64,000 nt of DNA from Escherichia phage EC128. A program made the position numbers and the translations under genes. Below are positions 59,997 through 64,000 of the stretch, in pieces; positions within the stretch are counted from its first letter, which is position 1; every line of letters starts with the position of its first letter. The stretch lies in sequence record ON210139.1, one strand, 5' to 3'. The notes beneath the pieces are model-generated. The model saw nothing but the letters and a program-made list of their open reading frames with translations, was not told where the DNA came from and ran no database searches.

Positions 59997-60173
59997 ATGC
60001 CGCTTTATGATTATAAATGTCAATCCAAAGACTGCGCAAAAGAATACGAAAAAATCAAGAAAATTTCTGAAAGGGATACTGATGTATGTCCTGATTGTCA
60101 TCGGATTGCTATTCGGTTAGTTTCCGCTCCTAAGCATGTGAATGGTGGATTTTACGACTTACTTAAAGGGTGA
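59997..60173 (+). CDS. FmdB-like zinc-ribbon protein (58 aa)
   Basis: YDYKC...C...CPDC, hand-translated. Confidence 0.4.
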   Translation: MPLYDYKCQSKDCAKEYEKIKKISERDTDVCPDCHRIAIRLVSAPKHVNGGFYDLLKG

Positions 60174-60175
60174 TT

Positions 60176-60547
60176 ATGTTTAAAATCGGTAAGAAATATC
60201 GTATTCGCGAAGGCGAAGAAAAGAAATATCTAATGTCTGCTATTTATAGGAATGGTTCTATTAATGCTGTAATATCTACAAGCGAATTTATCGTTGAAGA
60301 TATGAAAGGTCATAATGTTACGATGATTAGTACAGCGTCTGGAAATAATGGAAAAATTCTTCACAGTATGCAGAGTAATGTTCTAATTTATGCTGAAGAA
60401 TTTGACTTCTTCGAAGAAGTTCCCGAAAATTTTGATTTTGGATGCACTATCACTATGAAATCTGGTGACCCTCTTTCCTTTACAGTTAAAGATGAAAGAA
60501 GTCGCTTGAGAGTTATTAGTCTCCTTCAAGCCATTAAATTTAAGTGA
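60176..60547 (+). CDS. hypothetical protein
   Basis: start at ATG 60176. Confidence 0.5.
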   Translation: MFKIGKKYRIREGEEKKYLMSAIYRNGSINAVISTSEFIVEDMKGHNVTMISTASGNNGKILHSMQSNVLIYAEEFDFFEEVPENFDFGCTITMKSGDPLSFTVKDERSRLRVISLLQAIKFK

Positions 60548-60813
60548 AAATTATGAAATATGTTAATCGTTCTATCGCAGCATTAGTATTAGCAGTATCT
60601 TTAGTAGGATGTACTGATGCTGATAATGCAACTAAAATTTTATCATCAAGTGGTTTTACTAATATTGAAATCACTGGATATAACTGGTTCGGTTGCTCTG
60701 AAAATGATTTCCAACATACTGGATTTCGTGCTATTGGACCTACTGGGCAGAAAGTAGAAGGAACAGTATGTTCTGGTCTATTCTTCAAGGATTCGACTAT
60801 TCGTTTTAAATAA
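60544..60813 (+). CDS. putative lipoprotein
   Basis: signal peptide with lipobox LVGC. Confidence 0.5.
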   Translation: MKIMKYVNRSIAALVLAVSLVGCTDADNATKILSSSGFTNIEITGYNWFGCSENDFQHTGFRAIGPTGQKVEGTVCSGLFFKDSTIRFK

Positions 60814-60814
60814 A

Positions 60815-60831
60815 AGGCCTTCGGGCCTTTA
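60815..60831 (+). terminator. UUCG-tetraloop terminator/stability hairpin
   Basis: AGGCC-TTCG-GGCCT then TTT. Confidence 0.55.
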
Positions 60832-60855
60832 GCTTTATGATTATTGGAGTATAAT
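60831..60855 (+). promoter_or_regulatory. middle promoter candidate for gene 39
   Basis: AGCTTTA MotA-box variant, 12 nt, TATAAT 60850-60855. Confidence 0.45.
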
Positions 60856-60882
60856 ATTCCCGAAACCAAACGAGGATAAGTG

Positions 60883-62433
60883 ATGATTAAGAATGAAATT
60901 AAAATTCTGAGCGATATTGAACATATCAAAAAGCGTAGCGGCATGTACATTGGTTCTTCTGCTAATGAAATGCATGAGCGCTTTCTGTTTGGTAAATGGG
61001 AAAGTGTTCAGTATGTACCTGGTCTTGTTAAGCTTATTGATGAAATTATCGATAACTCAGTAGATGAAGGTATTCGTACTAAGTTTAAATTCGCAAATAA
61101 AATTAATGTTACTATTAAAAACAATCAAGTAACAGTTGAAGATAACGGTCGCGGTATTCCACAAGCGATGGTTAAAACACCTACCGGTGAAGAAATTCCT
61201 GGTCCTGTTGCTGCATGGACTATTCCAAAAGCAGGTGGTAACTTCGGTGATGATAAAGAACGCGTCACTGGCGGTATGAATGGTGTTGGTTCTAGTTTGA
61301 CAAACATTTTTTCTGTGATGTTTGTTGGTGAAACTGGCGACGGTCAAAATAATATTGTAGTTCGTTGTTCAAATGGCATGGAAAATAAATCATGGGAAGA
61401 TATTCCTGGAAAATGGAAAGGAACTCGTGTTACTTTCATTCCTGATTTTATGTCATTTGAAACTAATGAATTGTCCCAAGTTTATCTTGACATTACACTA
61501 GATCGTCTCCAGACACTTGCAGTAGTTTATCCTGATATTCAATTTACCTTTAATGGTAAAAAGGTTCAGGGCAATTTTAAGAAATATGCACGACAGTATG
61601 ATGAGCATGCTATCGTTCAAGAACAAGAAAACTGTTCTATTGCAGTTGGTCGTTCACCGGATGGTTTTCGTCAATTAACTTATGTGAATAACATTCACAC
61701 TAAGAATGGTGGCCATCACATTGACTGTGTTATGGATGATATTTGTGAAGACCTTATTCCACAAATCAAACGTAAGTTCAAAATTGATGTGACTAAAGCG
61801 CGTGTCAAAGAATGTTTGACTATCGTTATGTTTGTCCGTGATATGAAAAACATGCGATTTGATTCTCAAACTAAAGAGCGTTTGACTTCTCCATTTGGCG
61901 AAATTCGTAGTCATATTCAGCTTGATGCTAAAAAGATTTCACGCGCTATTCTAAATAATGAAGCAATTCTAATGCCGATTATCGAAGCTGCTTTGGCTCG
62001 TAAATTGGCGGCAGAAAAAGCAGCAGAAACTAAAGCAGCTAAAAAGGCTTCTAAAGCTAAGGTTCATAAACATATCAAAGCGAACCTTTGCGGTAAAGAT
62101 GCTGACACTACTCTTTTCTTGACTGAGGGTGATTCTGCTATCGGATATCTTATTGATGTTCGTGATAAAGAACTTCACGGTGGTTATCCATTGCGCGGTA
62201 AAGTTCTCAACAGTTGGGGTATGTCTTATGCAGATATGCTTAAAAACAAAGAACTATTTGATATTTGCGCAATCACTGGTCTAGTTCTCGGTGAAAAGGC
62301 GTTTGAAGAAAAAGAAGATGGCGAGTGGTTTACTTTCGAACTAAATGGCGATACAATTATCGCAAATGAAAATGATGAAGTACAGATTAATGGTAAATGG
62401 ATAACAGTAGGTGAATTACGAAAAAATCTATAA
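60883..62433 (+). CDS. 39: DNA topoisomerase II large subunit, ATPase part (gp39)
   Basis: 516 aa, GyrB-type GHKL ATPase and TOPRIM motifs. Confidence 0.9.
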   Translation: MIKNEIKILSDIEHIKKRSGMYIGSSANEMHERFLFGKWESVQYVPGLVKLIDEIIDNSVDEGIRTKFKFANKINVTIKNNQVTVEDNGRGIPQAMVKTPTGEEIPGPVAAWTIPKAGGNFGDDKERVTGGMNGVGSSLTNIFSVMFVGETGDGQNNIVVRCSNGMENKSWEDIPGKWKGTRVTFIPDFMSFETNELSQVYLDITLDRLQTLAVVYPDIQFTFNGKKVQGNFKKYARQYDEHAIVQEQENCSIAVGRSPDGFRQLTYVNNIHTKNGGHHIDCVMDDICEDLIPQIKRKFKIDVTKARVKECLTIVMFVRDMKNMRFDSQTKERLTSPFGEIRSHIQLDAKKISRAILNNEAILMPIIEAALARKLAAEKAAETKAAKKASKAKVHKHIKANLCGKDADTTLFLTEGDSAIGYLIDVRDKELHGGYPLRGKVLNSWGMSYADMLKNKELFDICAITGLVLGEKAFEEKEDGEWFTFELNGDTIIANENDEVQINGKWITVGELRKNL

Positions 62434-63229
62434 TGACTTAATAGTGCGGGGTAAAACCCGCGTTTCTAAATTTAAGGGTGAAATTCATCATATCCTTCCA
62501 AGATCAATGGGAGGTTCTGATGATAAAGAAAATTTGGTGAAACTGACTTTTCGTGAACATTTTTTAGCACATTTTCTACTATATAAAATTCATCGTAATC
62601 GTGAAATGGCATATGCGATGAATAGAATGTTAAACACTGAAAAATATTTACGTTCTAGTAAATTATATGAAATTGCTAGAATTTACCATCAAAGAGCAGT
62701 ATCTGAATGGTCAAAAAACTTTATGAAAGATAAAGTTTTAATGAGAAGTATTAAATCGGGTAAATGCGCCTTATTAATTAAAGGATCATTTAACCCAAAG
62801 GAATGGTGCGGTGTTAATAAAGGTGTTAAGCTTCCTGGAATTAAAGGCATGACATGCTTTAAAAATGAAAAAGGCGAAGTTTTTCGTCTTCATGTTAATG
62901 ATCCACGCATTAAAGCTGAAAAATTAGTTGGTATTGGAAATACTGTTGCTGCTACTGCAAAAGCAGCTGAACTTGAAAAAGCGAAACCATGGTATAATAA
63001 ATCAGCGACAAATCCAGAGGCTGTAAAATTAATACCAAATTTATATGAATGGTACGTCACGAAATATGACCCCGATCATTATAAACGAACGGGAGTTGCT
63101 AAATGGAAATCAGTTAATAATATAACTGTGAATTCAAAATTATTCGGCCGAGCATTTAATGAATTTAAACGCGGTTGGATTCCTGATGAAAAGTTCTATG
63201 AGGTGTATAATGAAATTTGTAAAAATTGA
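62411..63229 (+). CDS. mobA: HNH homing endonuclease MobA
   Basis: HNH motif EIHHILPRSMGGSDDKENLVKLTFREH; overlaps ends of 39 and 60; start GTG 62411 or 62444. Confidence 0.65.
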   Translation: MNYEKIYNDLIVRGKTRVSKFKGEIHHILPRSMGGSDDKENLVKLTFREHFLAHFLLYKIHRNREMAYAMNRMLNTEKYLRSSKLYEIARIYHQRAVSEWSKNFMKDKVLMRSIKSGKCALLIKGSFNPKEWCGVNKGVKLPGIKGMTCFKNEKGEVFRLHVNDPRIKAEKLVGIGNTVAATAKAAELEKAKPWYNKSATNPEAVKLIPNLYEWYVTKYDPDHYKRTGVAKWKSVNNITVNSKLFGRAFNEFKRGWIPDEKFYEVYNEICKN

Positions 63230-63347
63230 TTCTTCTAGCGTTGATATGAAAAAATATAAATTGCAGAACAATGTTCGTCGTTCTATTAAATCCTCTTCAA
63301 TGAACTATGCGAATGTCGCTATTATGACAGACGCAGATCACGATGGA
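63210..63347 (+). CDS. 60: topoisomerase II subunit gp60, codons 1-46 up to take-off GGA
   Basis: 46 codons ending ...DADHDG then TAG. Confidence 0.85.
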
Positions 63348-63397
63348 TAGCCTTCGGGCTATCTATAGAAATACCTCATAATTAAGAGATTATTGGA
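63348..63397 (+). promoter_or_regulatory. 50-nt translational bypass (hop) element
   Basis: take-off GGA 63345-63347, TAG, hairpin with UUCG loop, landing GGA 63395-63397; downstream frame continues. Confidence 0.85.
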
Positions 63398-63742
63398 TTA
63401 GGTTCTATTTATCCTTCTCTGCTCGGATTTTTTAGTAATTGGCCAGAATTGTTTGAGCAAGGACGAATTCGCTTTGTCAAAACTCCTGTAATCATCGCTC
63501 AGGTCGGTAAAAAACAAGAATGGTTTTATACAGTCGCTGAATATGAGAGTGCTAAAGATGCTCTACCTAAACATAGCATCCGTTATATTAAGGGACTTGG
63601 CTCTTTGGAAAAATCTGAATATCGTGAGATGATTCAAAACCCAGTATATGATGTTGTTAAACTTCCTGAGAACTGGAAAGAGCTTTTTGAAATGCTCATG
63701 GGAGATAATGCTGACCTTCGCAAAGAATGGATGAGCCAGTAG
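63398..63742 (+). CDS. 60: topoisomerase II subunit gp60, codons 47-160
   Basis: resumes at UUA after landing GGA; no in-frame ATG; total 160 aa. Confidence 0.85.
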   Translation, partial: LGSIYPSLLGFFSNWPELFEQGRIRFVKTPVIIAQVGKKQEWFYTVAEYESAKDALPKHSIRYIKGLGSLEKSEYREMIQNPVYDVVKLPENWKELFEMLMGDNADLRKEWMSQ

Positions 63743-63771
63743 TTTACTTTACCACAAGGATGTGGTATAAT
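63742..63771 (+). promoter_or_regulatory. early promoter
   Basis: GTTTACTTTACCACAAGGATGTGGTATAAT, near-identical to 14673. Confidence 0.6.
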
Positions 63772-63796
63772 TAATTGGGCAAATGAGGATATTGGA

Positions 63797-64000
63797 ATGA
63801 AATCATATAAAGTAAATTTAGAACTTTTTGATAAAGCAGTTCATCGAGAATATAGAATCATTCAACGCTTTTTCGATATGGGAGAAGCCGAAGAATTTAA
63901 AAACCGCTTTAAAGATATTAGAGATAAAATTCAATCCGACACCGCAACTAAAGATGAACTACTAGAAGTTGCTGAAGTTATTAAGCGTAATATGAATTAA
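63797..64000 (+). CDS. hypothetical protein (rIIA.1 position)
   Basis: 67-aa ORF; stop coincides with window end. Confidence 0.5.
   Translation: MKSYKVNLELFDKAVHREYRIIQRFFDMGEAEEFKNRFKDIRDKIQSDTATKDELLEVAEVIKRNMN

Follow-up and report, generated by a model that had tools for sequence, protein, structure and literature searches.

The closest described system to the locus considered here is the mobA/gene 60 cassette of phage T4 (Huang et al., 1988; Bonocora et al., 2011; Manning and Atkins, 2022, "clade 1"). Our locus lies at positions 60883–63742 of a 64,000-nucleotide (nt) stretch of Escherichia phage EC128 (record ON210139.1), which is referred to below as the window. It consists of three consecutive genes, all on the plus strand: gene 39 and gene 60, coding for parts of the topoisomerase II large subunit, and mobA between them, coding for an HNH homing endonuclease. 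All the features of the T4 cassette which can be read from sequence are found here as well: the site within TOPRIM, the replacement of 64 nt by 1106 nt, the 43-amino-acid (aa) tail of gp39, the 272-aa open reading frame (ORF), the 46-codon head of gene 60, the 50-nt gap with its GGA/UAG/GGA codons, and the hairpin. The genome is not that of T4, with a divergence of about 2.6% from T4T in the part of gene 39 preceding the element, and mobA is uninterrupted in the window, in contrast to the old T4 reference. We consider the region very probably to be a T4-type MobA element, i.e., a 1106-nt selfish cassette which invaded a contiguous topoisomerase II gene within TOPRIM. This interpretation draws on the gene anatomy and the boundaries, the intact HNH ORF, the recoded target, the stem-loop, the patchy occurrence among relatives and the fact that the gene was ancestrally contiguous, and nothing found contradicts it. 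The element has already been described in the literature, so EC128 adds one natural carrier with an intact mobA to about 40.

According to the published descriptions, the element is 1097–1106 nt long and replaces 55–75 nt of the parental gene (a 64-nt deletion in this clade). Its HNH ORF of 269–279 aa overlaps, out of frame, the element-encoded tail of ORF1 and head of ORF2. The former is a C-terminal extension of about 44 aa, and the latter an N-terminal extension with a homologous region; in the T4 clade alone, a further 9 nt past the gap are recoded. Right behind the homologous region comes the coding gap, which has matched codons for take-off and landing, a stop or hungry codon following the take-off, and a take-off stem-loop. 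The values found in the window (1106 nt, 64 nt, 272 aa and 9 extra nt after the gap) agree with this anatomy.

Full-length MobA homologues also reside in the same gene, between the topoisomerase halves, of two other Straboviridae, Proteus phage PM2 (55% identity) and Aeromonas phage AS-gz (37%). In both of them a short downstream ORF ends with DADxD and a stop codon, and the GQGSIYP reading follows a few dozen nt later. The gap sequences are unlike that of the window, and the resumed reading of PM2 is in frame with the head. The endonuclease and the bypass are always found together, even in these distant phages.

A related HNH endonuclease, MobE, is known from the literature to split the essential gene nrdA of Aeromonas phage Aeh1, where new C- and N-terminal tails enable the halves to reassemble. 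The N-terminal part of MobA, about 100 aa, is common to MobE-type free-standing endonucleases located beside nrdA and other genes; those by nrdA are 45–57% identical to it. However, MobE in nrdA has another target gene, is not accompanied by a bypass and has an unrelated C-terminal DNA-binding part, with the matches covering only residues 1 to about 110 of MobA. Homing endonucleases encoded in introns or inteins, such as the group I introns in td, nrdB and nrdD of T4, follow the same selfish logic (the empty allele is cut and acquires the element during repair, and the target is disrupted by the element itself), but those elements are spliced, whereas the MobA element relies on a split protein and ribosomal hopping. 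Finally, short mobile coding inserts skipped between matched codons, termed "byp", have been described in the mitochondria of Magnusiomyces capitatus; they differ in having an unrelated sequence, no endonuclease and many copies per genome. Among cases of programmed translational recoding, the hop in gene 60 is the classic extreme, and the MobA element exemplifies the colonisation of an essential gene by a homing endonuclease which needs neither an intron nor an intein. For the reading of raw sequence, the locus serves as a positive control and opens no new question.

Boundaries and content of the element

The initial annotation placed the end of gene 39, described as a GyrB-like ATPase/TOPRIM gene, at 62433, an HNH endonuclease ORF overlapping both neighbours at 62411–63229, and gene 60, regarded as the bypass-containing C-terminal continuation of gene 39, at 63210. 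Our reading of the locus is the same in all these respects (Table 1). The mechanical ORF of gene 39 opens one codon upstream of the ATG, with GTG 60880. The 819-nt mobA ORF, set in AT-rich DNA, shares 23 nt with gene 39 and 20 nt with gene 60 and differs from both in frame. The ATG of gene 60 is preceded by a GAGG Shine-Dalgarno sequence. The first segment of this gene comprises 46 codons, the last of which is GGA, followed by TAG; the second segment, in another frame, runs from TTA 63398 to the stop codon at 63740–63742 (114 codons), so that the joined product has 46 + 114 = 160 aa. T4T (HM137666) is annotated with the identical layout, including a 1551-nt gene 39, an 819-nt mobA and a gene 60 joined from two pieces; the 50 nt equivalent to the gap are named "non-coding translational bypass region" there. 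The region is 98–99.9% identical to about 40 phage records with the same gene arrangement; the closest overall match is Escherichia phage BF15 (98.9%), and many tequatroviruses match at 97–98%. Given the ORF length, the family match of MobA (E = 2.5e-57) and about 40 records alike, the arrangement is far beyond chance.

The boundaries of the insert follow from comparison with phage T2, in which gene 39 is a single 1818-nt gene. In the blastn alignment, window positions 60701–62300 and 63407–64000 match T2 and nothing aligns between them, so that homology is lost at 62300/62301 and regained at 63407. Bases 60883–62300 of gene 39 are homologous to the uninterrupted gene, while its last 43 codons come from the insert. 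The T2 protein reads ...GLVLGEKA-ENLNYHNIAIMTDADHDG-LGSIYPSLL..., and the order in the window is ...GLVLGEKA, 43 new residues, a stop codon, mobA, a new start codon, 30 new residues, MNYANVAIMTDADHDG, the 50-nt gap and LGSIYPSLL... again. The 43-aa tail is part of the TOPRIM insertion of about 69 aa by which T4 topoisomerase II (8yo3) differs from that of T6 (8ylu).

The N-terminal extension which gp60 receives from the element is 46 aa long (30 unique and 16 recoded residues). The recoded stretch as a whole includes the 16 codons before the gap and three after it. It differs from T2 in 18 of 57 nt, with 10 of the 13 changed codons being synonymous, whereas the adjacent 300-nt flanks differ from T2 by just 5.7% and 1.3%. 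The element supplies the 43-aa tail of gp39, the nuclease gene, the 30-aa head of gp60, a recoded 16-codon copy of the target and the bypass. The initial annotation had the whole gap filled by the HNH ORF and the cassette made up of endonuclease plus bypass; both of these are indeed there, but the C-terminal 43 aa of gp39 and the N-terminal 46 aa of gp60 are coded for by the element as well.

Table 1. Coordinates of the MobA element, its parts and the genes it separates, as positions in the window.
Feature	Position	Strand	Basis
Gene 39 (gp39, 516 aa)	60883..62433	+	ATG 60883, TAA 62431-62433; ORF and translation
Whole MobA element, 1106 nt replacing 64 nt of uninterrupted gene 39	62301..63406	+	T2 locus L001 2437-2500
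Element-encoded C-terminal extension of gp39, 43 aa (FEEKEDGEW...GELRKNL), and stop codon	62302..62433	+	Identity with T2 gp39 ends at ...GLVLGEKA
mobA, free-standing HNH homing endonuclease, 272 aa, intact	62411..63229	+	GTG 62411, TGA 63227-63229
Gene 60 start and unique N-terminal extension, 30 aa	63210..63299	+	ATG 63210; translation; without counterpart in T2 gp39
HomR, 16 codons (MNYANVAIMTDADHDG) re-encoding the displaced target, ending with take-off GGA 63345-63347	63300..63347	+	Codon alignment to T2 LNYHNIAIMTDADHDG
Take-off stem-loop, 10 base pairs, UUCG loop; GGA and UAG in the 5' arm	63343..63366	+	RNA fold
50-nt coding gap (bypass)	63348..63397	+	TAG 63348-63350, Shine-Dalgarno-like GAG 63386-63388, landing GGA 63395-63397
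Gene 60 second segment, codons 47-160 and stop codon	63398..63742	+	Translation; Pfam TOPRIM_C; first 9 nt (63398-63406) are recoded element sequence

gp39 matches the Pfam domains DNA_gyraseB and HATPase_c, the GyrB/ParE models of NCBIfam and PHROG 543, the family of phage topoisomerase II large subunits (E = 1.4e-229). Its domains are the ATPase and the transducer, together with the N-terminal half of TOPRIM, which has the glutamate motif TEGDSA at aa 414–419. The second segment of gp60 matches Pfam TOPRIM_C and the GyrB C-terminus, and the DxD motif (IMTDADHDG) forms the last residues encoded before the take-off codon. Since the DxD motif directly precedes this codon while TEGDSA belongs to gp39, the split passes through the TOPRIM metal-binding site. 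The domains of the ATPase subunit of type IIA topoisomerases (GHKL ATPase, transducer, TOPRIM and the C-terminal region) are all present but spread over gp39 and gp60, and the T6 and T4 topoisomerase II structures (8ylu and 8yo3) match at E ≤ 1e-131. Judging by these matches, genes 39 and 60 code for two halves of one GyrB-like subunit, and the single-polypeptide state usual for GyrB/ParE-like subunits is not found at this locus.

The nuclease and the mobility of the cassette

The HNH motif of MobA, EIHHILPRSMGGSDDKENLVKLTFREH, is located at aa 24–50. MobA matches PHROG 655 "homing endonuclease" (E = 2.5e-57) and PHROG 12434 "HNH endonuclease" (2e-11). In a PDB sequence search, a group II intron maturase and Cas8-HNH fusions aligned, through their HNH, with its EIHHILPRSMGGSDDKENLV...H motif; this search returned no close relative with a solved structure, and the HNH motif of about 28 aa alone gave matches. 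The family profiles thus assign MobA to the HNH (beta-beta-alpha-Me) endonuclease superfamily, in line with what was initially annotated. The overlap of mobA with gene 39 hinges on the GTG start codon at 62411, while the old T4 reference record opens mobA at an in-frame GTG equivalent to 62444. Since homologues and family profiles align from MobA residue 1, the sequence evidence favours the start at 62411. A likeness of MobA aa 60–112 (62588–62746) to the C-terminal domain III of baseplate gp6 was also considered (Pfam score of 19.8 bits with a cut-off of 27; PDB 9f4a, E = 0.18) and is probably due to chance.

About 500 phage records contain a gene 39 at least 95% identical to ours in the distal part. 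The cassette is present in about 40 of these approximately 500 tequatrovirus records, and the others possess an uninterrupted 1821-nt gene and were aligned in two pieces. The T-even relatives with an uninterrupted gene 39 anticipated by the initial annotation do exist: the gene is contiguous in T2, T6 and RB14, being annotated in RB14, for example, as "60plus39".

Over the distal 868 nt of gene 39, the nearest sequences are those of the cassette-free Pu-Krd-SF series phages (98.5%), with T4 outside the best 60 matches and consequently at no more than 97.7%. The cassette itself is 99.6% identical to that of T4, and identity is 99.6–99.9% across the carriers with more diverged flanks. There are five differences between the window and T4T in the 1106-nt element vs. 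36 in the 1400 nt upstream. As the flank is nearest to cassette-free phages and the cassette is nearest to that of T4, the phylogenies of the two, as far as can be judged from these identities, disagree. A near-identical element amid more diverged flanks points to its recent spread.

Several observations have to be set against an invasive cassette which is still mobile. The 500 nt upstream of the element (61801–62300) were used as a query in a database search, and no cassette-linked co-conversion tract was found there: the cassette-free FriedrichZschokke, fFiEco06, G29 and other phages are 98.0–98.4% identical to the window, and T4 is 98.2% identical. Because carriers and non-carriers are equally similar in this region, there is no direct trace of recent homing into this genome. 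Such a tract had been suspected from the 34 differences to T2 vs. nine to T4T in this interval, but was ruled out on the same grounds; T2 is simply divergent here. The Pfam HNH profile (PF01844) gives MobA 20.1 bits, slightly below the curated cut-off of 21.4. The sole difference from MobA of T4T is A169 vs. T.

Taken to the extreme, the missing co-conversion tract and the marginal Pfam score would make the cassette an immobile remnant, with an inactive or non-homing MobA and with the split and the bypass kept by the need for topoisomerase. Stepwise decay of the element, in which the nuclease is pseudogenised or lost and the bypass is kept, has been reported in the literature for some phages. 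However, a dead remnant is very unlikely in EC128, because the ORF is intact over 272 codons, keeps its HNH motif and is nearly identical to MobA of T4T (271 of 272 residues). The recent spread suggested by the near-identity of the element across carriers also speaks against it. Moreover, according to summaries of Bonocora et al. (2011), MobA of this clade is active in homing and the cassette is preferentially inherited in mixed infection.

Some other records are relevant to mobA itself. In the old T4 reference (NC_000866.4; locus L003, 2145–2941) mobA is divided into a "defective" mobA and ORF 60.1. Compared to the window and T4T, this record has 11 single-base insertions, mostly of G, between window positions 62543 and 62750, and at least eight independent T4 re-sequencing records match the window ungapped over 1201 nt. 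The mobA "pseudogene" of this record, which reviews have taken over, may reflect old sequencing errors and not biology. MZ375356.1, a "T4" record of 151,790 bp, matches 76% of window positions 62300–63500 with its positions 501–1417. The match is in two pieces, implying a deletion of about 285 nt inside mobA with gene 60 and the bypass kept. Either a laboratory strain with a deletion or a natural intermediate of decay could account for this record.

A tblastn search of the 64-kb window for MobA paralogues gave nothing better than E = 0.7, and there are five MobA-matching places per genome in T4T (HM137666) and pSe_SNUABM_01; genes of the mobB–E type may be absent from this part of the genome or located outside the window. 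Another annotated homing endonuclease, about 60% identical to the first 70 aa of MobA only, adjoins the topoisomerase II large-subunit gene in vB_Eco_F27 (OP870146.1, 4240–4452) and phi25-307 (NC_055734.1, 152564–152776). It may be one more free-standing nuclease aimed at the same neighbourhood.

Ancestry of the contiguous topoisomerase gene

The TOPRIM region of T2 gp39 aligns unbroken with T6 topoisomerase II (8ylu), bacterial GyrB/ParE and human Topo II, while the fused T4 gp39-gp60 construct (8yo3) gives two aligned stretches parted by about 69 extra residues. Since type IIA topoisomerases, from bacterial to human ones, show no interruption at the site, the contiguous gene is ancestral and the split derived. 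Together with the replacement of 64 nt of T2 by 1106 nt, this bears out the initial proposal that a mobile cassette invaded an ancestral contiguous gene.

The opposite order of events would require the split to be ancestral and the single gene of T2, T6 and RB14 to result from secondary fusion after the loss of the intervening ORF. Some room for it is left by the paper on the cryo-electron microscopy structures, where "gene-fusion or gene-separation" are given as alternatives, and secondary re-fusion has been reported for one Aeromonas clade. However, the re-fused Aeromonas genes keep element-derived tails, which T2 does not have. GyrB/ParE and eukaryotic Topo II are contiguous at the exact site and T2 aligns there without the extra residues of T4; T2 possesses its own 64 nt at this place with no deletion scar; the recoded region differs from T2 to the extent given above; and about 90% of close relatives are contiguous. 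An ancestral split can be considered effectively refuted already.

Relatives having the split but no nuclease were expected by the initial annotation to speak against an invasion. Those described in the literature retain the element-derived tails, and for this reason they are secondary losses and do not speak against an invasion.

Group I introns with homing endonucleases are present in T-even phages, and an origin of the bypass from a degenerate group I intron has reportedly been proposed. Nevertheless, there is hardly any chance that the interruption is a self-splicing group I intron or an intein with its own homing endonuclease, whose halves are joined as RNA or protein: the Rfam scan of 60500–64000 at E ≤ 1 revealed no group I intron core or other RNA family (three noise-level hits were far below the gathering scores), no Pfam Hint/intein domain was detected in any of the three proteins, gene 39 ends with a stop codon, gene 60 has its own Shine-Dalgarno sequence and ATG, and the cryo-electron microscopy study describes three separate subunits for the T4 enzyme.

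Translational bypass, proposed mechanism and neighbouring sequences

The elements known from the literature to drive the hop are the UAG codon, the take-off stem-loop, the nascent peptide and the Shine-Dalgarno-like GAG. In the window, the stem-loop has a folding energy of -14.7 kcal/mol (z = -4.78), and none of 200 shuffled sequences folds as well. The GAG stands 6 nt before the landing GGA, and the nascent-peptide signal KKYKLQNNVRRSIKSSS is present in the head of gp60. The gene 60 head and the bypass have zero differences from T4T.

A hairpin AAAGGCC-UUCG-GGCCUUU is located at 60813–60830, upstream of gene 39, and directly follows the 39.1 homologue. The core of this hairpin, GCCUUCGGGC, is identical to the top of the bypass take-off stem-loop (63350–63359). 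Hairpins with the UUCG tetraloop are abundant in T4, and this is probably just one of them, though the identity is striking.

The mechanism by which the MobA element would spread and be tolerated can be outlined as follows; nicking, homing, self-protection and the bypass efficiency of about 50% are taken from the literature, with the results of Bonocora et al. (2011) known through a review and a preprint. In a mixed infection, MobA would nick the cassette-free gene 39 of the co-infecting phage, and recombinational repair off the cassette-bearing genome would copy the cassette in. In these summaries, MobA is stated to nick the T2 allele and to home in mixed infections, the nick falling about midway along the region to which the recoded stretch is homologous (Bonocora et al., 2011). 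The carrier itself would stay uncut, as the 50-nt insert directly after the recoded target would disrupt the MobA site. The same summaries state that the recoded polymorphisms alone do not stop MobA nicking while the bypass insert, about 20 nt downstream, does (Bonocora et al., 2011).

The enzyme would be rescued without an intron or intein. The gp39 half presumably gets from the element a stop codon and the 43-aa tail, and gp60 gets a ribosome-binding site, a start codon, the 30-aa head and the 16 recoded codons, after which the two polypeptides are expected to reassemble with gp52 into an active enzyme. Ribosomes would take off at GGA (codon 46) and land 50 nt further on at the matching GGA, aided by UAG, the stem-loop, the nascent peptide and GAG. 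About 50% of ribosomes are said to bypass the gap in the summaries of Bonocora et al. (2011), and roughly half stop at UAG, releasing the 46-aa head peptide of gp60.

This terminated head peptide and/or the TOPRIM pendant of about 69 aa might have a function of their own, making the cassette more than a selfish passenger, but we give this only a small chance. The function could be regulatory, assembly-related or directed against host defence and, if real, might partly account for the retention of the element by about 8% of tequatroviruses; a preprint poses similar questions on the function of the cassette. According to the 2024 cryo-electron microscopy study, the element-encoded TOPRIM insertion (about 70 aa) hangs outside the domain, barely affects relaxation activity and probably aids assembly of the split subunit.

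Scanning of the region for promoter and terminator consensus sequences gave fewer promoter-like sites than in shuffled sequences and none informative for mobA expression. The best sigma-70-like match of the region (63743–63771; TTTACT-17-TATAAT, extended -10 TG, 10/12) begins one base past the gene 60 stop codon and is located upstream of the rIIA.1 homologue (63797).

On the other side of the locus, a 125-codon ORF (60170–60547) is found between the 39.2 and 39.1 homologues. Its T2 counterpart is a hypothetical protein (L001, 314–631), while T4T is devoid of it, and the T4T alignment bins covering 60301–60600 contain gaps and a high mismatch. The presence or absence of this ORF looks like a small indel polymorphism beside the topoisomerase gene.

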